Shown here piece by piece: positions 1 to 63,110 of a stretch of DNA of 64,000 nucleotides (positions are counted from its first letter, which is position 1; each line of letters begins with the position of its first letter). The position numbers and the translations under genes were made by a program. This DNA comes from Octopus vulgaris (Eukaryota), in the NCBI GenBank assembly GCA_951406725.2, contig OX597819.1:90210001-90274000 (forward strand), read 5' to 3'. The notes beneath the pieces are model-generated. The model worked only from the letters and a program-made list of their open reading frames with translations. It had not been told where the DNA came from and did not search any database.

Positions 1-2160
1 ATAATCTTTATGAAGTTACAAATGATAAATGTTAAGTTGATAAATGATAATATGATAAGTTGCTGAAAGATACCACATCCTCTAAATATAAGGAAACTAA
101 TGTAGAGAGATACTATATCAATGATGAAGCTAAATTCCTCACTAAACATAGTAATATTGATGATAGATTAGAATGCTTAGCTAAGTGAGAAGTGTTTATT
201 ACTTTAAAAGACCATAAGCCCAATTTTCTTCTTGTAGATTGTGAAACCCAGCAAGATCTGAAATTGGGCTAGTAGCTAAAAAGAATACTTAGAAATATTA
301 ATGATACAATTAGGGAAATTACTGGGCTTCAACAATGGAATAACAGATTTACAGTAACAGATTGGTTTAAGAATATCAAGAATAAGGTTAAATTTACCCT
401 CTTTGATATAGACTTTTATCCCTCTATATCTAGATTGCTGCATGATAAAGTTATTGAATTTATTAAATCATATGTTGATATTGACCCTGTAGACCTAAAT
501 TTTATCAGGTATGTGAGGAAAGCACTATTGTTCAATAAAGGATTATCATGGGTAAAAAAGTTGCATAGCAGTGAACTATTTGATGTATCTATGGGGTCAT
601 ATGATATTGCTTATATCTGTGATCTTATGGTTTTATCCATATCAAACACATTGAGATATAGATACCCATCTCATGACGTTGGCCTATAACCATGATGACA
701 GTTTGGGCATTTCCCATGGGTGTGATGGTAACACCCTTGATAGATTTAGAAGGCATCTAATTCCTACCTTTTATAATTTAGGACTTAAAATTACAGATGC
801 TACTAATCTCTCAATAGTTGATTATTTAGATGTTTCTCTAGATTTAAATTCCTTGTATAAACCTTTCCATAAGCCTAATGAGAAACTCGCATATATACAT
901 AAAAAATCTTGTTACCCTCCTTTAGTATTTAAAAACCTGATATTAGTAACAGAGTGTTTAACCTCTCTTCTTCTAAAGAAATTTTCGAGAAAGCTGCCCC
1001 TTATTATAACAAGGCCCTAGCCGATAGTGGCTTCAAAGATACATTAATATAAATCCCTCTAATAATAATCAAAATATTAATAATAGTTCTAGTGGCATCA
1101 AAGATAAAGTTGTACATAACCACTCTAGTATTAATCAGGATAATAAGAAAACTAAAAGTAGGTCAAGGAAAAATTTTTGGCTCCTTCCTCTCTTTTCCGT
1201 TAATATAAAAATTAATATTGGTAAAAGATTCCTGTCTCTCCTAGATAAATATTTTCCAGCCCCTCACAGATACTGGTAAATATTTAATAGGCATTCTGTG
1301 AAATTATCATATTGCTTCTGCCCCAATATGAAGAGTAGCATTACCCGTGATCAATACGAAGAGCCTGAATCCAGTTGCAACTGTCAAGACCCAGGATCCT
1401 GTCAACTTGACCAACGATGTATGACTAAATCTATTGTATATGAGGCAGAAGTTACTGCAACCCTGAATAATAATACAACTGATAAGAAGACTTATATTGG
1501 ATTATGTGAAGGTCAGTTTAAAAATTGCAATGCCAATCACATAGCTTCCTGACATAGAGACAAAAGTAAAGTTCCTAAGTTGGCTAGCTGTGGACTTTGA
1601 AAGATAATGACGCACCACATGTGATTAAATGGAAAGAAATTGAGAAATCCATACCTCATGTGAATGGATTGAATAAATGTAGATTTTGTTTGGCTGAAAG
1701 AATGCAGATCCCGTTCAGCTCTAAGATTCCTAACTCTCTATTGATCTCCAGGTCAGAAATTTTCAGTGGTTGCATGCATATGAATAAATATATTTTGAAG
1801 AATTGAAAAATTTTGCTTATTTGTGACTGACTTGATATCTTTCCAGCTTTATCATTTAAGGTCTAAGGAGGATAGATCTTTTACCTTTTTACTTTATACT
1901 TTTTGAATTTTAGTTTTTGTTTTCTGTTGTTTATTGTCTGCATTTTCTGTATGCTGCCTTCTCAGTTTTTTTGCATTTCTTCTATTATTCAATTTCTTTA
2001 GTTCGTTATGATATGTTGTTTGCACCTGAAGAATAGGTTTGAGTTTTCACAACATATGAAACTATTAGTAGCGCTTTAATACATGTATTGTGATCTTTAA
2101 ATAAATAATAATTATCTCTCACCAGATGGAGTACTTTTTTTGTTGAGTTTTCTAACATGG
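1..2160 (+). mobile_element. Degraded Penelope-like retroelement (RT + GIY-YIG endonuclease + 3' pLTR), cut by the window start
   Basis: Frameshifted ORF pieces: FDVSMGSYD..CDL, HDDSLG (YRDDGL-like), DYLDVSLDL..YKPFHKPNE, C-x-C/C..C then IVYEA..TYIGLCEG (GIY-YIG), and C-terminal SRSEIFSGCMH. A hammerhead motif follows at 2022. Confidence 0.88.
2022..2074 (+). ncRNA. Type I hammerhead ribozyme motif (degenerate) in PLE pLTR
   Basis: gcac-CTGAAGA-ataggtt..aacatat-GAAA-ct att ag-TA-gcgc. The core is intact, stem III is ACT/AGT and the cleavage triplet is GUA. Stems I and II each have one mismatch. Confidence 0.65.
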
Positions 2161-2191
2161 ATCAGTACATTATATATATGTATATATATAT

Positions 2192-11112: not shown

Positions 11113-11645
11113 TAATAATAATAATAATAAACATTGTGTACAGTGCTCAGGTGCACTACAACTCATCTAAAGTGCATATATAATCAGGTGTAGTTTCGAC
11201 GGATTTCGGAAAGCATGAGGGCCTTAAAGGATGCAGTGTCATGGCAGTCAGCAACTGACGCAGGCAGTTTATTCCATGCTTCAGCAACTCTGAGCGTGAA
11301 GAAATGTTTCCGAAAGTCATGGGAGCTGTGTTGTTTTCTGACTTTGTAGGCATGTCCACATGTGTTAGACACATGGAGATCAAAAAGGTGTTCAGTGTTG
11401 TTGTTGTTGGTGAGGTGGTTGATAACTTTGTGGGTGTTTACCAAGTCCGTCGCCAGACGCCAGAGCTTCAGTGAATCCATGCCCAGGGAAACAAGGCGCT
11501 CAGAATATGGTAGGTGTCTGATGGAGGGTATGCATTTGGTTGCACGTCTCTGAACAGATTCCAGGAGGTCAATGTTTTGAGCAAGATAGGGGTTCCAAAC
11601 TGATGATGCGAATTCCAAGTGTGGTCGTACCATAGCTGTATACAG
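11113..11645 (-). mobile_element. CR1-clade LINE 3' fragment
   Basis: VRPHLEFASSVWNPY..LESVQRRATK..YSERL..RKHFFTLRVAEAWNKLP is the typical CR1 ORF2 C-terminus. It has an (ATT)n tail. Confidence 0.9.
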
Positions 11646-11859
11646 CTGTATGATAGGGAGAAGTAAATTGCAAAGGGCAAAGCAATCTGGAAAACAAACA
11701 TAGCTTGCAAATTAAGATCCCTCAATGGGAAATTATCAAATAACTCTATAAATCTAAATTTATCATAAATCTTATGATAAATTACAGAGCTGACTTGGTG
11801 GGCACCCACAAGATTATCCACCATCTTTCCCACAACAATTTTGGGCACCTTTTTGAATT

Positions 11860-12195
11860 CCATGTCTGATACTTGTGGACATGCTTACAAGATCAAAAAC
11901 AAAACAGAGCACCCATGACTTTCAAAAACATTTTTTCATGCTCAGAATTGCTGAAACATGGAATAATCTACCTGCATCAGTTGTTAGCTGTCAAGATACT
12001 ACATCCTTCAAAACTTCCATGCTTCCTGAAATTCTCCAATAGTACACCTGATACACCCACCTTTGTTTCTTCTTTTATTTTTGAAGATATATTCATACTT
12101 CCTGTACATATTCTATGTACTGTTCATGCTGTTTTAGTTACATTTTTGATGAGTTGTAGTGCACCTGAGCACTGTATACAATAAGTTCATTATTT
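11860..12195 (+). mobile_element. CR1 LINE 3' end
   Basis: Homologous to 11113-11400 in the opposite orientation. Shares the gtgcacctgagcactgtatacaat terminus. Confidence 0.8.
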
Positions 12196-12329
12196 AAGCT
12201 GAAAGTCTGATAACAGCTGCTCAGTACCAGTCCCTTCCAACTGAACATATAAAAATCATTTACATCATCAGCGTTTTAACATCCACTTTTCAATGCTTTC
12301 TTGGTTCAGATGTATATATATATAAACAA

Positions 12330-12377
12330 TTGCAGTGAACAGGTCGCAGCCTCAAAGCGACGAAAATATTTTGGCAA
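12330..12377 (+). ncRNA. Candidate hammerhead variant with G3-C8 core
   Basis: ttgca-GTGAACA-g-gtcgc(9 nt)gcgac-GAAA-atatt-t-tggcaa. Perfect stem II and palindromic AATATT stem III. Confidence 0.5.
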
Positions 12378-12515
12378 ATTAAATTTTAATATTGAAGTGA
12401 ATCTAACGGATTTTGTGTGTTTTTAAATGGCTTGTAAACACCTTCCACACTGCAATTATTTATATTTCAGCACACAACCTCAGATCAGGTCACTTGCTAT
12501 GCAAGTACATCTCCG

Positions 12516-12548
<33 letters not shown>

Positions 12549-12551
<3 letters not shown>

Positions 12552-12835: not shown

Positions 12836-14064
12836 GCATGCGCATGCAAGCTCAGAATCAGAATATTAGACTTTAATGTTGTGCATCTGTGGTGAATTTG
12901 ATAAAATCTCATCCACATTCTGCTTAGATACTTCATACTGGTCATTACATGTTATATCAAGAGATATGACAGAGTAGTTATCCATCTCCAGTGAAAATAT
13001 GTAAAGCAATAAAGCCTCTTTCTTGGGAATAAAAGAATGGTATAGGTATGTCTAAAGATAAATGTAAGGCATGAAAACAGTATGATTGAATAGCATATAC
13101 AAATATGTGTGTGAGTGTGTGTGTATGCATGTGTATATACACACACACAGATAAAAGAACAACAAACCACTCATATATCATTATAAAGACAATATATCCC
13201 ATTCATGTATACTATTGATGTGTCCTGTCTAACAGATAATAATGTCTTGCTAAAAGAAATTGTAAAGGAGATTGAATAAAAAATAAACAGGCAACACTCT
13301 AAAGAACTGGTTGTAGAAATATTGAAGCTATGGTTTATGGACACAGAAACAATCCTCATAACAATGGCAGTATTAGAAGAAGGTAAGCATGATACAAAGC
13401 AGAAAATTGAGGGACTGCCATATAAAGTCCATAAAATAATACTCCTAGGAAGTTTTCATATTCTTTAAAGCAAATCGATAGAGTATAATAAAAAAAAAAA
13501 AGATGAAATGCTTATAACTGGAGATCTGTATCTCAGAGTTAAAGAATGGCTTCAGTAGAGTATATGTACTTTAAAGAGAATGAGGTTGCAGTGGCAGCAG
13601 TGATGGTGGTGGTGGTGGTGGTGGTGGTGGTGGTGGTGATGGTGGCAGTGGTGGTGAATGGAAGGCTTATAAATGTAAAAAATGTGTAACAAAAAAACTC
13701 TTCTCTATCCACAAGGAAGTTATGAAATACAAAACAGAAACAGATTACACTGAAGCAATAGATTTAGATAAAAAAACAGAAATGGTAAAACATATAATAA
13801 ACTACATGAAAACAAATTACAAAGCAAACTCATGAAAAATGGAAAAGAAAACCACTCCATGGTCAATACACTACAAGGGTATTGACCACGGAGAGGTTTT
13901 CCTTTCCATTTATTCTAGAGGAGAACTAAGCCAAAGAGAAAATCAACAACGGCTTAAAAACTCCAATAAGCAGAAACAGATGAGCTGATGTTTGAAAATG
14001 GAATCATGAAAATGAAACACCAAATACAGGATGTGTGACCAGCATGATGAGACAACTGACTACA

Positions 14065-14497
14065 TCTGGCAGCTGACTTGGCAGACACCCATAAAATTAT
14101 TAACCATCATCATACAAACAATAACTCTGAGCACCTTTTCAAACTCCACCCGTCTTACACTTGTGGGCATATTTACAAAGTCAGAAAACAGCACAGCTCC
14201 CATGATTTTAGGAAACATTTTCTCACGCTGAGAGTTGCTGAAGCATGGAACAAACCACCGGCATCAGTTGTTAGTTGTCAGAGCACTGAATCCTTCAAAA
14301 CTTCCATGCTTTCTGAGATTTTCCAACACTACACCTGATTTTCTCCCCTCCATACACACACAAGCATGTATCTGACTCATACATTGTTCGCTTTCCAGGC
14401 ATTTGTACACTACTGCATACACTTTATATGCACTTTCTGACAAGTTGTGGTGCACCTGAGCACTGTATACAATAATTTCATTATTATTATTATTATA
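14065..14497 (+). mobile_element. CR1 LINE 3' end
   Basis: ORF 14078..14338 (RKHFLTLRVAEAWNK) and an (ATT)n tail. Confidence 0.88.
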
Positions 14498-27095: not shown

Positions 27096-27132
<37 letters not shown>

Positions 27133-27218
27133 GTAGGTCCCGGGTTGATTCGGGGTTAACCACAGTAAATAAGGTACTCAATACATAGCAGAGTAAAATT
27201 AATTTATTATATAGAAGG

Positions 27219-27269
27219 AGCTTCTACAGGACTAGAACTGTTTCATTCAAGAGAAATCTTCAGGAAGCT
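27219..27269 (-). ncRNA. Type I hammerhead ribozyme (inverted pLTR copy)
   Basis: Exact reverse complement of 35624-35674. Confidence 0.85.
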
Positions 27270-27380
27270 AGTTAACAAGAATTGTATTGGCATTTATACA
27301 TTTAGGCAGGTTTAAAGGGGTGTTGGTGGGGGACTTTTTTGGGGTAGGCATAGCGCAAAATATCATACTTGGGGGAGTGG

Positions 27381-28647
27381 ACTTTTCTTTTCTATGATGG
27401 ATCCCACTGGATCAACAAAAAATCTGTGACCCCCTTCGACGTCAGCATGGGTGCTAACGACTCTGCTGAAATAAGTGACCTAGTGGGCCTTTTCATCCTC
27501 CATAGGCTGAAAACCCTATTCACAGGCCTCTCCGGTGGTCTTTACCGCGATGACGGCCTTTTCGCCCTCCACAAAATAAACCCCAGGATCACGGATGGGT
27601 TCCGGAAAAATCTTTACACCTTCTTTAAAAACTTAGGCCTTAGGATTACCTTAGAATCCAACTTAACAAAAGCTAACTTCCTTGATGTCACCCTCGACTT
27701 AAAAACCTCACTTTATTACCCGTACCACAAACCGAATGAATCCCTTAGATATATAGATATTAATTCCAACCACCCCAAAAATATATTAGATAACCTAGTA
27801 AAAAGTGTCTCAATTAGAATTTCTAGCCTGTCCGCCACGGAAGATATCTTTAAGGCCGCAGCCCCCTATTACAACGAGGCCCTGGCCCGTAGTGGCTTTA
27901 AAGATAAGATTACCTATACTAGTATAGCCCCACGCCAACCCAGGAAAAATAGACGAAGACACATTAGCTGGTACAACCCCCCTTCAACCGTGAGGTCGCT
28001 ACACCTGTAGCTAAAATCTTCTTCACTCTCCTACAGAAACACTTCCCCACCCAACATAAGTACTACACTATCCTAAATAAGAATACTATTAGACTCTCCT
28101 ACTCTACCACGCCCAATCTAGCCAGGAACCTAGCCAACAACAATGTGAAAAAACTTAACATATCTACTTTTTCCGAGGCCCATCCAACGTCCGATAGCAA
28201 TTGCAACTTCCCGGATAAAACCACCTGCCCCCTCAACAACAACTGCCTACAGAGGGACCTAGTATATACATGCGAGGTAAGATCAGGCCCTGACGATAAA
28301 AGAAAATCCTACATCGGAATGACGTCAAACAGCTTTAAGACCCGTTGGTACGCACACACACACACTCGTTCCGGCGACAGGATAAATCCAACCAAACTAC
28401 CCTCGCCGCCCACATCTGGTACCTTAAAAGGAACTCCATCCCCTTCAAGACCAAGTGGAAACTACTACAGAAGGCGCGCTCGTACACAGGAGGCCATACC
28501 TGCTGTGACCTCTGCATATTGGAGAGCCTAGAGATCTTGTTCGCCAAAGGCCCTCTCCTTAACAAAATCTCAGAACACTCCCCAAATTGTATGCATAAGA
28601 AGTATGCGAACTACAAGAACTATAGACCTACCCGGCAACCAGATTGA
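27381..28647 (+). pseudogene. PLE reverse transcriptase C-terminal half + GIY-YIG endonuclease (frameshifted)
   Basis: FDVSMGANDSAEISDLVGL, GLYRDDGL, NFLDVTLDL, WYNPP, LVYTCEV..SYIGMTSNSFKTRW, CDLCILE and CMHKK. Two frameshifts, near 27980 and 28360. Confidence 0.92.
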
Positions 28648-31050: not shown

Positions 31051-34000
31051 CATCATCATCATCATCATCATCATCATCGTTTAGCGTCCGTTTTCCATGC
31101 TAGCATGGGTTGGACGGTTCTACTGAGGTCTGTGAAGCCAGAAGGCTTCATCAGGCCCAGTCAAATCTGGCAGTGTTTCTACGGCTGGATGCCCTTCCTA
31201 ACGCCAACCACTTCGTGAGTGTAGTGGGTGCTTTTTACGTGCCACCCGCACTGGTGCCAGACAGAGCTGGCAAACGGCCACGAACGGATGGTGCTTTTTA
31301 TGTGCCACCGGCACGAGGGCCAGGCGAGGCTGGCAACGGACACGAAACGGGGCGGTGCTGGCAACGGTCGCGAAACGGAAAGTTCTCTTACATGCCACCG
31401 GCACTGGTAACACATCTGCAATTTCCATTGATCGATTTCCATTGATCGATTTCGATTCTGATCCTCACTTGCCTCAACGGGTCTTCACAAGCAGAGTTTC
31501 GACATGCCACCGGCACTGGTAGCACATCCGCAATTTCCATTGATCGATTTCGATTCTGATCCTCACTTGCCTCAACACGTCTTCACAAGTAGAGTTTTGT
31601 GTCCCAAGAAGGGAAGGTATGCATACGTAGGCTGGCTCCATCCCATGTAGAAGGCCACGGGTTATGGACTCACTTGTCCTGCCGGGTCTTCTCGCGCACA
31701 GCACACTTCCAGAGGTCTCGGTCTCTAGTCATTTCCTCAGTGAGACCTAAAGTTCGAAGGTCGTGCTTCACCACCTCGTCCCAGGTTTTCCTGGGTCTGC
31801 CTCTTCCACAGGTTCCCTCAACCGCTAGGGTGTGGCACTTTTTCACACAACTATCTTCATCCATTCTCGCCACATGACCATACCAGCGCAAACGTCTCTC
31901 TTGCACACCACAACTGATGCTTCTTAGGTCCAGCTTTTCTCTCAAGGTACTTACACTCTGCCGAGTGTGAGTACCGGCATTACACATCCATCGGAGCATA
32001 CTGGCTTCATTTCTAGCGAGCTTACGCATATCCTCAGCAGTCACGGCCCATGTTTCACTGCCATGTAGCATGGCTGTTCGTACACACGCATCATACAGTC
32101 TGCCTTTCACTCTGTGCGAGAGGCCTTTTGTCACCAGCAGAGGTAAGAGCTCTCTGAACTTTGCCCAAGCTATTCTTACTCTAGCAGTTACACTTTCAGC
32201 ACACCCGCCCCCGCTGCTGACTTGGTCACCTAGGTAACGGAAACTATCAACTATTTCTAGTTTTTCTCCCTGGAAAGTGACGGAAGTTGGTCTCAGAGCA
32301 TTTTCAGTGTTTATTGTTCCTGAGCATCTGCCACATACAAAAACCATCTTCCTAGTTAGCCTTCCTTTGACATTGCTGCATCTCTTATGTGTCCAAAGCT
32401 TACACTTGGTGCATCTTATAGAGTTTCTACCTACACCTTTTCTACAGATCGAGCAGGGCCATCTACCTGAAGGTGTTTGTGATTTGTCTACCTTCCTACT
32501 GATTACGACTTTGGTTTTAGCTAGATTGACTCTGAGGCCCTTCGATTCTAATCCTTGTTTCCACACCTGAAACTTCTCCTCCAGTTCTGATAGCGACTCA
32601 GCAATTAGAGCAAGGTCATCAGCATAGAGGAGCTCCCAAGGGCATCCTGCTTTGAATTCCTCCGTTATTGCCTGGAGGACTATGATAAATAGGAGGGGGC
32701 TGAGTACTGAGCCTTGGTGGACTCCTACCTCTACCCGGAATTCTTCACTGTACTCATTTCCAACCCTCACCCTACTAGCGGCGTCCCTATACATGGCCCG
32801 CACAGCTCTCACTAACCATTCATCTATCCCTAGTTTCCTCATTGCCCACCAGATAAGGGATCGGGGGACCCTGTCGAAGGCTTTCTCCATGTCAACAAAA
32901 GCCAGGTACAGGGGCTTATCTTTGGCTAGGTATTTCTCCTGCAGCTGCCTTACCAGGAATATAGCATCAGTAGTACTTTTCCCTGGCACAAACCCAAACT
33001 GCATCTCATCTAAACTAACTCTCTCTCTAATTAGTTGGGCTATGACCCTCTCCGTAACCTTCATCACCTGGTCCAACAGCTTGATACCTCTGTAGTTATT
33101 TGTATCTAGGGCATCACCTTTACCTTTGTAGCAGTTGACTATTATACTGCTACACCAGTCATTGGGTATGACCCCTTTGTGTATCACCTGATTAACTATA
33201 CGGGTGACTAGGCTATAGCCGACACTACCAGACATTTTGAGCATCTCTGCAGTGATTCCTGATGGGTCTGGGGCTTTCCCTGTCTTCATGCTTCTAATTG
33301 CCTTAGCTACCACAGAACTATCAACTCAGATAGCTGGTCCCTCTGTTGGGTCAACATTCGGCAGACTCTCTTTATCCCATTCATTTTCTTCATTCAGCAA
33401 CCTTTCATAGTGGCATCTCCAAACCTCTCTCTTTGCATCCTCATTTAGCGCAAGTGAACCATCTTCCATGCGAACACACTTCTCTCCTACCACATCACGA
33501 TTCTCTCTCACACACTGTCTTGCAACACGAAACACCTCCAGTCTTTGGTCCTCACGGCGCAGAACATTGGCAAATTTTTTCTTATCTGCTTCCCCTCTGG
33601 CTAAATAAACCTGTCTCCTAGCTTCTCTTTTGGCAGTCTGATACAATTCCCTGCTACCCCCATTTTTCCAGACCTTCCAAGCCTGTCTCTTTTCTCTAAT
33701 AGCCCTGTCTACAATATTGTTCCACCACCACGTTATTCTAGGTCGAGAGGGGACTTTGCACCAGCCACAGATCTGGTCAGTGGCTCTCAGCAGGTTGTCC
33801 CTTAGAAACGTCCAGCTGTCTTCTACCCCCTGTGATGCTCTATCCCCTTCTACTTCGTCAGAGGCTTCAAGTAATATGTCCCTAAATCTCTGTCCATTTG
33901 CAGGATCTTTAAGCTTCCAGATCCTTCTTCTCCATATTTGTCGTCTTCTGGTTGTCCTCCTAGTCCTGATCCTAAAGTCACTAACTACCAGTCTATGTTG

Positions 34001-34716
34001 TGGGGTACATTCTTCACCTGGGAAGGTTTTGGCATTTATAAGCAGCCATCTCTCCCTTTGCCTTGTAAGGATGTAGTCAATTTGGCTGGTATGTTGGCCC
34101 GATTGGTAAGTGACTAGGTGGCTGGTAGGTTTCCTGAAGTTAGTGTTGCAAATCATAAGATTATTTGCATCGCAGAACTCCAGCAGCCTGGTTCCCTCCT
34201 CGTTGCGGGAGCCATAGCCATAGCCTCCATGTACGCCATGGAAGCCCCCAGCATGTCGTCCAACGTGACCATTGAAGTCACCAGCCACAAAGATAAGGTC
34301 TCTGTCGTTCGTCAACGAGGTAGTCTGCAGTAGAGTGTCATAGAATCGGTCTTTCTGTCCATCGGGTAGCCCCGACTGAGGAGCATAGGCTGATATAATG
34401 GTTGCTAAACTATGATGAAGCACTAATCTAATCTTAAGTATTCTGTCACATACTCTGATTACCTCAATTACTTTATCTACCCATTTCTCAGCGATAAGTA
34501 TACCCACGCCACCAACCCCGTCAGTGTTCCCTGCCCAGAAAATCTTGTACCTGTGTTCCTTGCCTGTGAGGAACCTAGCTGATCCTCCTCTCCACCTTAT
34601 TTCTTGCATGCAACATATATCCACACATCTCCGTTCAAGCATCTCGACTATCTCACCAGACCTACCTTTCAGAGTGCCAACGTTGAGGGTGCCAACCCTG
34701 AGGGTGTGGGAGGCAT
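31051..34716 (-). mobile_element. Near full-length RTE-clade LINE (APE endonuclease + RT), truncated at the start of APE
   Basis: (GAT)n tail, repetitive 3' UTR and one reading frame from about 34714 to 31670 with a single stop. Motifs: LRVGTLNV, MQE, AGDFNGHVG, SQIDYIL, QHRLV, QFGF, FVDMEKAFD, QGSVLSPLLF, YADD and RGRPRKTW. Confidence 0.96.
31670..34714 (-). pseudogene. RTE ORF (APE-RT with internal PHD-type finger), one in-frame TGA at 33326-33328
   Basis: ORFs 33326..34642 and 31670..33313 are in the same frame (GPAI*VDSSVVAKAI). The frame is also open upstream of 34642. Confidence 0.93.
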
Positions 34717-34978
34717 GAATATAACGCGTGCGTGCGTGTATGTGTATGAGTGTACGAATGAGTGAGTGTACGTGCTAAAGAGTGTGCATGAGTGAATGAG
34801 TGCTTGTTTTCCAGTAGACAGATAAATGGACTGGCTGTCATAGCCAAGATGTTTGTGACCAAGCGGCCAAAGATAACAAAAGTAATAAACGAAGATAATA
34901 AAATTAAAATTAGGGAATGGGTCTGTATTTGTATGTGTATATATATATGTGTGTATGTGTAGGTATGCATAGGTACAC

Positions 34979-50579: not shown

Positions 50580-50945
50580 GATATTGTTATTCTTGGGGAT
50601 GGTCATTTTTTGCCAATTAAACACACTATATATTTGGTCTTCACTTCAGCTTTATTATTATTATTATTATCATTTTAGTTCCTTTGTGTCAAATCTCTTT
50701 TGTCACATATTTTGTGACCTTTTCAATGACCTTTTATCCCACATGTTTCCTCTTGTTCTGCTTATTCCATTTTGTCAAAAATGGAATAAGCAGAACATAG
50801 GATAAAGGGTTGTTGAATAGTTCACAAGATGTGTAATGAAAGAGCTTTGACAAAGAAACTAAAATAATAATAAAGCTGAAGTGAAGACCAAATATTTAGT
50901 GTGTGTTTAATTGGCAAAATATGACCATCCCCAAGTATCACAATA
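50580..50945. repeat. Imperfect fold-back of about 365 bp with U3-A8 hammerhead-like motifs in both arms
   Basis: cttggggatggtcat/atgaccatccccaag and gttctgcttattccatttt/aaaatggaataagcagaac. Motifs lie at 50688-50730 (-) and 50809-50851 (+). Confidence 0.8.
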
Positions 50946-52340: not shown

Positions 52341-53240
52341 AAGTAAGGTCCTGGAGATATATAATCTTCAAACCCAGTTTCTCTTGTAAGTTATAGTCAT
52401 TTCTTTTTGTCAGTAATAGTTTTGAAAAATACACGAACACCACACAATTTCATTTTCTCTCCCTTCTTCTATATCTGAGAATGTTTACATTTGTAAAAAT
52501 TATCAATACAAAGATGATAATTTTCTGCAGTAACACTATCTTTAGCATGTGTATAATTACAATATTTGTATTTACCCTCCATTTTTTATTGGTTCACTAT
52601 TAAAATCCTTTGTTTAGGAAGAAAATTTTCTTATTTCAGAGATGTACTTGCCAGGCAGGTGATTTGATCTAAGAATGTGTGTTGAAACTGAAACAATTAC
52701 AGAATGGAAGATACATATTAGCTATTCAAAAATACACAAAGATTGTATATACTTTACCTAAATGTTTATTATTTGGTGTCCTCTCAGCAGAATTGCATCA
52801 GTGAACAGTATGCAGTTGGTGCGACAAAAGTTTTAGCGCCAAATCTGAGTGATGTTAACAGTCTTTGTGTGTTTTCAAATGGCTGATATGTGTTTTCCAC
52901 CCTGTAAAAGTTTGTTAGTTTGGGTAAATATACATATTCAGTAATAAGACACTCAATGATCAGAGATTAAACCAACTGAAATATAGTGTCTGCTAATCTT
53001 GTAAATATATACTTTAAAGATGAAATTAATAGTCTAAAGTTTATTGTGGATCTTGAAATATTTAATCAATAAATCTATATATTTCTAGGTAATTTACAGT
53101 CTCTATTACCTAATAATTCATTTAAAATACTCTTTCAAAATACTAATAGCTTGGCTAAAACATTTTGTTACCTCATTATAAATGCTATTTTAGTTTTGTT
53201 ATGTGCGTAGGAAACTCATTATAATTTCCAGTAACTTATT

Positions 53241-60128: not shown

Positions 60129-61346
60129 TATGTACATATAAGAGATAAATGGAAATTAACTGTGTAGCTGAATATTTCTATGGTAATGTTCATGAGTAAT
60201 ATGATATTTAAAACCAAACTCACACACATACACTACACGCACCCATACACATATTTATGACACCAACATAGAAGGCAGATATTAAATGATGATGATGTGT
60301 ATATATATATATATATAAACACAAATATACACTATTTTAAATGCAATATTACTCATGGACAGCATTTCAAAATATCTCTTTCAAATGAAATATGAGAAAA
60401 ACATTTCTTTAGTTTCATCTTATTTAATATGGAATAGTTCCCGAGTTTCATTGTCCTTTAATTTTCTTTAACCGTTTTTTTTTTTCCTATTTCTTTACTT
60501 TTTGTTTTTCATTTCTTGCTTCCCCCGTTCCCACATCTCACCACTCATGCCTGTAATTTTGAAGCACCATAAATTCTACAGTTTAATGTATTGATATATA
60601 TATATATATGTCTGCAATTGTTGATTGAAAATTTGAGAGTTTCATGCTAAGTTCATGAATTAAGGTGAAACCAAAGCATATCCTTTCCTTCAGAGACGAC
60701 ACTGACTCGAGTGAGGCCAAGAAAAACAATCAACAAGGGTAAGATGAATTGGTGTACTCTATTATTTTCTCCTTGTTAATCTTTTATTTCACATTGCTTA
60801 CATTACTTCAGTTCTTTAGGGTCTTCTGTTGCACGTTCCCATTTACTCATTTGCTAGTCTTTTTCACACTTAGTAACATCTTTTCTCATCAACATCACCT
60901 AACTAGTTGTTCCTAACACATTTCATATATTATCTAATTTTCAGAGATATCTGTATCATTTTGAGATATTGCAAATATCTTCAGGAATTTTGGATGTTCT
61001 AGATTTTTCACTCTAGACTTGTCGTCTGTGTAGAAAAAAAAATAATAGATTCAAGCTGGTGTGTATATGTATGTATCTATATGTACACATGCTGAAAGTT
61101 GGATATGCATTTTTCATGTACAAACACTCACAGTTGTATATGATGTCACGTTTTTCTTATATATAAATGTGTGTACATTTGTGTACATGTACGTATGAGT
61201 GTGTGTGTGTATGCACATATATATATTCATATATATATGTGTGTGTGTGTGTATGTATATATATATATATATACATATATTTATATATATATATATATAT
61301 GTATATATGCATACTTTATTTAAAAGCAGCAGAAATATAACAAAAG

Positions 61347-61888: not shown

Positions 61889-63110
61889 TATACTGTTGTG
61901 TCTAGGGAGAGTCATTCTCTTTTAGTGCCTTTTAATTTAACACACTCACCAGTAAAATTTCCACTTATTTCTTTATTTATTTTTCTAAAATTTTCATTGT
62001 GTCTTGTAACCTTTTCAATAGTTTTGACCCTGTCAGTTATTCACACTGCGTTCCTTTTTGTTTGTTTGTGTGCATGTGTGTGGGTTAGTGTGTGTGTACA
62101 TATACACGCATCTATGTATGTAGTGATATGATCAGAAAGATAGCGTTCGAGTATACAGGGGTGCTAGAAAGAAATTAGATAACATTATATGTAATGATAC
62201 CAGTGGTACCTGCCCTTGATATAGAAACAAAGATTGGAATAGGATACAAAGAACTTGTGACGAAGCAAACAGAGTGAACACATGGTATAAAACTGAAAAA
62301 TATCAAGGAGTGATGTTTGTAGATGTCACAGCCCATGGAGAACTCACCCGTAGATTTAGAAAAGCTCTGAAGGAGACCAAACTCAACATTAAGATTGTTG
62401 AAAAGCCAGCAAATTCCATCAGATCACAACTATGTAGGATGTACTCCTTTGAGAATACCATATGTGCCAATGATAACTGCATGGTATGTAGGATTAGCCC
62501 TGGTATTAACTGTAGAACTAGAAATGTAGTTTACTGCATCAGATGCATAGAAGGTGCTTGTAAAGACATGAACATGGCATACATAGGAGAGACATCTAGG
62601 AGCATTGCAGAATGACTAAATGAACATTTGAGACAATATGACAACAAAAGACAGTCATCCATACTCTACCAACATGGAGGCAACCTGGGTCAACTTAACA
62701 TCCGCATCTTATCCACACACACATTCAGACATGCACACACAATGAGACAGAGGTACACACACACATATACAAACACACATACATAAAAACACACAAATAC
62801 CGACACGCAAACACATAAATATGCAGAATACATACATACAAATGTAGACACATACATAAATACATGCATACACACACATATGCATGTATATGCACACACA
62901 CACACACACACACACTAAGCCACACACATGCACACAAACAAACAAAAAGGAATGCAGTGTGAATAATGGACAGTCAAAACTAATGAAAAGGTTGCAAGAC
63001 GCAATGAAAATTTTAGAAAAAGGAAAGAAATAAGTGGAAATTTTACCAGTGAGAGTGTTAAATTTATAAGGTACTAAAAGAGAAGGACTCTCCTTAGACA
63101 CAACAGTATA
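61889..63110 (+). mobile_element. 5'-truncated Penelope-like element (GIY-YIG region) with inverted pLTRs
   Basis: Inverted repeat 61889-62097 vs about 62903-63110. Coding sequence reads C..C..C..CRTRNVVYCIRC..AYIGETSRSIAE*LNEH. Confidence 0.88.

Follow-up and report, generated by a model that had tools for sequence, protein, structure and literature searches.

A hammerhead-like motif with a G3-C8 core pair in an abundant repeat of Octopus vulgaris, likely the terminal repeat of a Penelope-like element

The full-length hammerhead ribozyme structure revealed, as its central result, a pair between residues 3 and 8. Inversion of this pair has served as a laboratory rescue control, and the only natural exchange in the literature searched is U3-A8. 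A stretch of 64,000 nucleotides of Octopus vulgaris DNA (contig OX597819.1, positions 90,210,001 to 90,274,000, forward strand; the whole stretch is referred to here as the window) contains a hammerhead-like motif with G at position 3 and C at position 8. This locus raises the question of whether the flipped pair is the decay of one copy or the state of a repeat family, and whether such a family could be a natural ribozyme of a Penelope-like element (PLE).

At 12330-12377 the letters of the motif, copy 1, are ttgca GTGAACA g gtcgc agcctcaaa gcgac GAAA atatt t tggcaa. Most of the parts named in the preliminary description are present in the letters of the window, namely the GTGAACA core (12335-12341), GAAA (12362-12365), the AATATT palindrome (12365-12370) and an insertion following (TA)6 at 12313-12324. 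The perfect stem II, gtcgc/gcgac (12343-12347 with 12357-12361), was upheld on folding, with pair probabilities of 0.82-0.94 in contexts of 61-131 nt. The element had been thought to end at 12455, which proved too short: family contigs and nhmmer/blastn comparison carry the repeat to about 12515. Copy 1 sits between (TA)6 and (TA)16. Its parts are as follows, with the basis of each in brackets.

12313..12324, no strand: (TA)6, left flank, likely the target microsatellite (sequence)
12324..12335, minus strand: 12-nt inverted piece of the copy's own 3' part (12450-12461), source of a false stem I strand (family letters upstream of 12333 differ)
12333..12334, plus strand: what remains of the 5' strand of the true stem I (its last two letters), a strand that is TTTGTCA in the family (contig loose ends before 12333)
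12335..12341, plus strand: core strand G3 U4 G5 A6 A7 C8 A9, with the 3-8 pair flipped (sequence and contigs)
12342, plus strand: extra nucleotide G between 9 and 10.1 (sequence; described as typical of PLE minimal hammerheads in PMC4209133)
12343..12361, plus strand: stem II, 5 bp, G10.1-C11.1, 9-nt loop (folding)
12362..12371, plus strand: G12 A13 A14 A15.1, palindromic helix III AATATT (12365-12370) and U17 (sequence; published-consensus numbering)
12372..12378, plus strand: stem I 3' strand, TGGCAAA in copy 1 (contig variants)
12379..12515, plus strand: AT-rich rest of the repeat; close to its 3' end a 6-bp hairpin, 12492-12506 (contigs, comparison and folding)
12518..12549, no strand: (TA)16, right flank (sequence)

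In this numbering G3 is 12335, C8 is 12340, A9 is 12341, G12 is 12362 and U17 is 12371, and the predicted cut would fall after U17, between 12371 and 12372. The surroundings are rich in other repeats. A clipped piece of another high-copy repeat lies directly upstream (12252-12311, plus strand), and a related-looking repeat begins at 12551, past copy 1. The 3' ends of repeated LINE reverse transcriptase (RT) ORFs lie at 11184-12050 (minus strand), where several stand in tandem, and at 14060-14338 (plus strand).

Stem I is the part of the preliminary description that did not survive. The pairing ttgca/tg(g)caa is a junction artefact, as the family contigs diverge from the window at 12333; before this point the family letters are ...GAATTTTGT, in 164, 224, 167 and 18 contigs of four sequencing runs, among the loose ends listed. 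The upstream loose-end consensus comprises 30 letters with an agreement of 0.58-0.66. From this consensus and the contig variant table the family stem I was read by hand as TTTGTCA/TGACAAA, a helix of 7 bp, where a type I PLE minimal hammerhead calls for at least 3 bp. Copy 1 is clipped inside stem I: its letters 12324-12335 are those of 12450-12461 in reverse complement, fused to the motif at a shared CAG, and the copy retains two of the seven stem I pairs. The chance expectation for an 11-mer with one mismatch at most is about three per window, and about 0.01 inside the element. An exact 11-mer at 60612 was discarded as a chance match, and the family upstream motif has no other occurrence within the 64-kb window. 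In the full context of copy 1 the inverted piece pairs with 12448-12465 and the probability of stem II falls to 0.12. Copy 1 itself is probably inactive, with its two remaining stem I pairs and an inverted piece that can pair over the core.

Evidence on the state of the family comes from contigs of four public runs, aligned to 12180-12516 at 80% likeness. Three of these (X1, X3 and X9, under three organism labels) are guessed to be DNA runs. The fourth (X15) is guessed to be an RNA run, and its contigs were left out as expression evidence because its RNA status is only a guess. The numbers of aligned contigs were 4163, 7183, 5841 and 594, counts that include the different repeat at 12252-12311. 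Summed depth rose from 9.6 in the unique flank to 5.5e5 over the motif in X1, and from 56.6 to 2.4e6 in X3. These depths were discarded as a copy count, since overlapping contigs inflate depth; the repeat is nevertheless very abundant, probably with thousands of copies or more. It is 200 nt or more in length, with homology to about 12515 followed by unlike, AT-rich ends. The suggestion that the motif belongs to a repeat family is thus borne out by four runs with three organism labels and by the homology of a second copy in the window.

Within the family no change at 4% or more is listed over 12335-12373 in any of the four runs, a span that includes G3, C8, stem II and AATATT. The lone change listed over 12335-12378 in the four runs is A/G at 12374, where A accounts for 55, 51, 37 and 77% of depth; the exchange turns U-A into U.G and pairing is retained. 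No two-sided compensatory change was seen within the main family. Conservation of GTGAACA, on which the preliminary description had staked its reading, was found except in a minority with A3. In X9 at least 20 contigs have A3 versus 167 that run through G3, among the loose ends listed, and A3 is also seen in one X1 row, among the rows listed; the alignment ends 3 nt away from position 3, and changes at this position are therefore undercounted and surface as loose ends. Both the contigs and copy 2 indicate that G3 with C8, the inverted pair noticed at the outset, is the family state and not decay of copy 1. In addition, no decay is listed for the three CpGs of stem II and G12, whereas a CpG at 12407-12408 varies in up to 12% of depth. 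This steadiness is suggestive of constraint on the source copies, and is open to reference bias. The low variation may reflect only a young family and the 80% likeness filter.

A second, diverged copy lies some 40 kb downstream. Homology of the downstream part of copy 1 to this region had been proposed, and it was recovered with blastn at 52848-52907 (E 1e-5) and with nhmmer at 52799-52911 (E 1.9e-5). Moreover, the motif segments of the two copies align with each other better than any of 2969 random window segments. Two features are recognised here.

52790..52911, plus strand: copy 2, diverged (about 70% identity), GTGAACA at 52801-52807, G12 lost (blastn, nhmmer and alignment)
52637..52746, minus strand: 3' half of the repeat in inverted orientation, adjoining copy 2 on its upstream side (E 5e-16)

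The inverted half stops at the same 3' point as copy 1. Copy 2 retains GTGAACA in all seven positions, together with TGCGAC, and its loop II is completely different, a pattern that fits constraint on the fold. The stems are broken, G12 is gone and the helix III palindrome is degenerate, losses that fit decay after insertion, and the copy has no clear (TA)n flank. A weak, possible fragment of the middle part of the family was also noted at 50869-50933 (plus strand; nhmmer E 0.17, blastn E 0.001).

How often such a motif could arise by chance was judged against 40 Mb of simulated order-4 Markov sequence. A minimal-hammerhead descriptor with loose settings matches the window three times, and copy 1 alone has a 5-bp stem II. 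The simulated sequence contained two matches with a G-C 3-8 pair, stem II of at least 5 bp and stem I of at least 2 bp, and 11 with any Watson-Crick 3-8 pair. At the level of the family fold, with stem I of at least 7 bp and any Watson-Crick 3-8 pair, there were none. A looser pattern of core plus stem II is common by chance, with about 0.2 G-C matches per window, and a single copy is therefore only moderately surprising; the case is carried by the family evidence and not by the lone copy. The free energy of copy 1 is not outstanding (z of -0.45 and -1.39), as expected for a minimal hammerhead. Rfam gave no hammerhead match in the window, among the matches listed, or in 12300-12520. The strict pattern had no matches in metagenome, prokaryote-genome or viral contigs. 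The looser pattern had none in viral contigs and seven loci in metagenomes, of which three share one stretch and two share another; the fold and further homology are missing from all seven, which are chance matches.

The closest known counterparts are the minimal hammerheads of PLEs, for which Cervera and de la Pena (2014, PMC4209133) describe the consensus CUGANGAH-stem II-GAAA-palindrome-UH. The family has the type I PLE core residues U4 G5 A6, A9, G12 A13 A14, A15.1-U16.1 and H17. It departs from the literal C3-G8, since both window copies and the contigs have G3 and C8, and the pair remains Watson-Crick as G-C, the A3 minority apart. It shares with the hammerheads described in PMC4209133 the extra nucleotide, G10.1-C11.1, a palindromic helix III and a loopless short stem I, as well as an AU-rich 3' flank and the occurrence of dispersed single and close opposite-strand copies. 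Two differences stand out from the same source. Among its 56 PLE minimal representatives (Fig. S3), 53 have C3-G8, two U3-A8, one U3.G8 and none G3-C8, which the descriptors excluded; and the extra nucleotide, G in the family, is H in the PLE consensus and G in one of the 56.

Natural U3-A8 variants, described by Perreault (2011, PMC3088659) and in the Schistosoma Cercyon element (PMC4209133), show Watson-Crick covariation of the 3-8 pair, as here. However, U3-A8 involves two transitions and keeps the pyrimidine-purine order, whereas the G3-C8 of the family involves two transversions and inverts it. The same core change has been engineered as C3G/G8C, also in the Anolis Poseidon element (PMC11167929; review, PMC8495972), and is reported to restore activity in part. 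That double mutant was made in the laboratory, whereas the G3-C8 pair described here belongs to a natural multi-species repeat, predicted to be weakly active. In the literature searched, mostly non-subscription text and not figures, engineered mutants were found and no natural G3-C8 case. The supplements of PMC13282606 and PMC8967140, neither of which has a repeat library, contained no matching sequence.

The family probably represents the terminal repeat (pLTR) of a Penelope-like retroelement, with copy 1 a 5'-clipped, dispersed copy; the link to PLEs is inferred from the layout and the type of motif. According to Craig et al. (2021, PMC8557442), PLE copies are heavily truncated at the 5' end, have inverted copies beside them and target microsatellites, and the pLTR proposed at the outset fits with the 5' inversions and, at copy 1, the (TA)n flanks. 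Both window copies have 5' truncation with an inverted 5' piece and a fixed 3' end, a trait that is not unique to PLEs, and the 3' loose ends of the family contigs are AT-rich. Of the 15 joints listed (of 29), eight invert the strand at 12333-12343, and their far ends are spread over 12368-12485; joints of this kind can arise from repeats in contigs. These joints were rejected as evidence of cleavage: three of the eight end within 8 nt of the predicted cut, each on one or two contigs per run, and stem I microhomology explains them equally well. No PLE-like ORF adjoins copy 1 or copy 2 within the window; as a rule, PLE minimal hammerheads are single or on opposite strands, far from any ORF (PMC4209133). 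Naiads, a group of PLEs present in cephalopods, are described in PMC8557442 as having a (TA)n preference, inverted 5' copies and no canonical hammerhead. The layout of (TA)n and inversion is common to canonical PLEs, and gives no pointer to Naiads. The family motifs are absent from the supplementary consensus file of PMC8557442, which is line-wrapped, so that a split match could escape.

The window contains other elements as well, among them PLE remnants with canonical-core motifs and (TA)n ends, whose presence counts in favour of the PLE reading. A broken PLE-like RT and GIY-YIG ORF (276-1803) is followed by a degenerate canonical-core motif and a (TA)n end, together spanning 276-2170 (plus strand); its hammerhead-like motif has CTGAAGA at 2026-2032 and GAAA at 2058. 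A second PLE-like remnant within 27130-28647 (27354-28647, plus strand) is GIY-YIG-like by Atlas and has an inverted terminal repeat upstream with CTGAAGA...GAAAC on the minus strand (27263-27257). The terminal repeat of 27130-28647 resembles 2020-2170 (1 of 500 shuffles). The G3-C8 family is not detectably like these two canonical-core pLTRs, as 147 and 88 of 500 shuffles score equally. A fragment at 62220-62612 (plus strand), with a Cys-rich linker and YIGETSR, appears by eye to be a GIY-YIG piece of another PLE clade and shows no similarity to the other two PLE-like remnants. A long imperfect palindrome at 2198-2361, seen by eye and MITE-like, adjoins (TA)n, and a nearly intact LINE ORF with one stop (31673-34774, minus strand) has endonuclease, RT and PHD-like finger domains (Pfam). 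Pfam searches of 8, and then 95, of the 222 ORFs listed found no host gene and left the PLE pieces unnamed.

The reading preferred here, with a probability of roughly 0.6, places the family motif in a PLE-type terminal repeat, as a ribozyme with weak activity. That the repeat has the same PLE origin and its ribozyme is dead throughout the family, the fold being a relic of a cleavage that transposition does not need, is considered unlikely. Hammerhead mutants of the lizard PLE left insertion in vitro unaffected and no RNA-seq reads are reported to have ended at its cut site (PMC11167929), Naiads spread without a canonical hammerhead (PMC8557442), and the A3 minority was amplified or arose often, all of which would suit a dead motif. 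Against it, the flip of the 3-8 pair takes two transversions, each inactivating alone, and arrival at exactly the rescuing pair is likelier under functional selection; moreover, the core and stems are steady in the family and copy 2 retains the core.

There is only a small chance that the motif is something other than a PLE ribozyme, weakly active or dead. A non-autonomous DNA element (MITE- or Helitron-like) or a SINE, with hairpins that merely look like a hammerhead, is distinctly improbable. In both copies the motif does lie between inverted repeats (18 nt and 56 nt), a 6-bp hairpin lies 9 nt from the 3' end of the repeat, and no ORF link was seen in the window. Nevertheless, a MITE comprising 12320-12465 was rejected, since the inverted arms differ in length between the copies and the element ends lie beyond them, the family extending to 12515. 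The family also has other letters upstream of 12333, with inversion points scattered over 12368-12485; the 3' end of the repeat is not CTRR; and chance is a very unlikely source of the full hammerhead pattern. A retrozyme-like non-autonomous element, a short unit carrying a type I hammerhead that is copied via circular RNA by a PLE protein and is not the end of a coding PLE, is very improbable. The very high copy number with no ORF seen is in keeping with it, as is one contig with a go-back joint from 12465 to 12351, and animal retrozymes are described as non-autonomous PLE derivatives (bioRxiv 10.64898/2026.07.22.740005). However, the window copies are dispersed and inverted, with no head-to-tail arrays in the window, and in helix III and the extra nucleotide the motif follows the minimal hammerheads of PLEs, not the canonical retrozyme type.

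If the family motif is a weakly active PLE ribozyme, a transcript with two repeat copies could allow the AAUAUU palindromes of two motifs to pair and form a helix III dimer, as has been proposed for PLE hammerheads (PMC4209133; PMC6765202); alternatively, the protein of the element may assist folding. Stem I, of 7 bp, and stem II, of 5 bp, would close the junction, and G3-C8 would preserve the tertiary pairing that positions the 2'-OH of residue 8. A weak self-cut after U17 might then free the element RNA from a longer transcript, and target-primed reverse transcription into (TA)n would spread copies with clipped and inverted ends. In the Anolis PLE hammerhead, single C3G and G8C mutants are reported to be dead, and the double mutant to be partly active and to need the protein of the element (PMC11167929). 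Minimal PLE hammerheads are described as weak even with a canonical core (PMC4209133). A G3-C8 variant is stated in passing, with data not shown and in a G17 context, to have higher activity when a nucleotide other than C stands at residue 17 (PMC3884650); G3 could mispair with C17, and the U17 of the family would fit with this. The palindrome extends to 10 nt (AAAAUAUUUU; -3.8 kcal/mol), and this longer duplex could, in the model, trap A13, A14 and U17 in an inactive form.

A bolder extension is doubtful: that an active natural G3-C8 hammerhead marks a whole PLE lineage scored as 'hammerhead-less', that each genome has thousands of copies of it, and that it cuts in vivo and has left a DNA record of its cut site in the inversion junctions at 12368-12379. 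Such scoring would follow from published descriptors that demand C3-G8 or U3-A8. Craig et al. are described as having searched for hammerhead cores as 'cuganga' (PMC8557442), and the prediction is that searches anchored on CUGANGA miss whole families.

The role of PLE hammerheads has been called unclear (PMC8557442), and hammerhead cleavage is reported to be dispensable for insertion in vitro (PMC11167929). If there is no cleavage, the repeat would be an ordinary transposon relic. If the family cuts, it would be a new natural hammerhead variant in which the core pair is G-C instead of C-G. A natural, multi-species and high-copy G3-C8 motif, if true, would mean that evolution got past two inactive single mutants and retained the pair at the active site, and the family would then be a direct argument for functional selection on PLE hammerheads.
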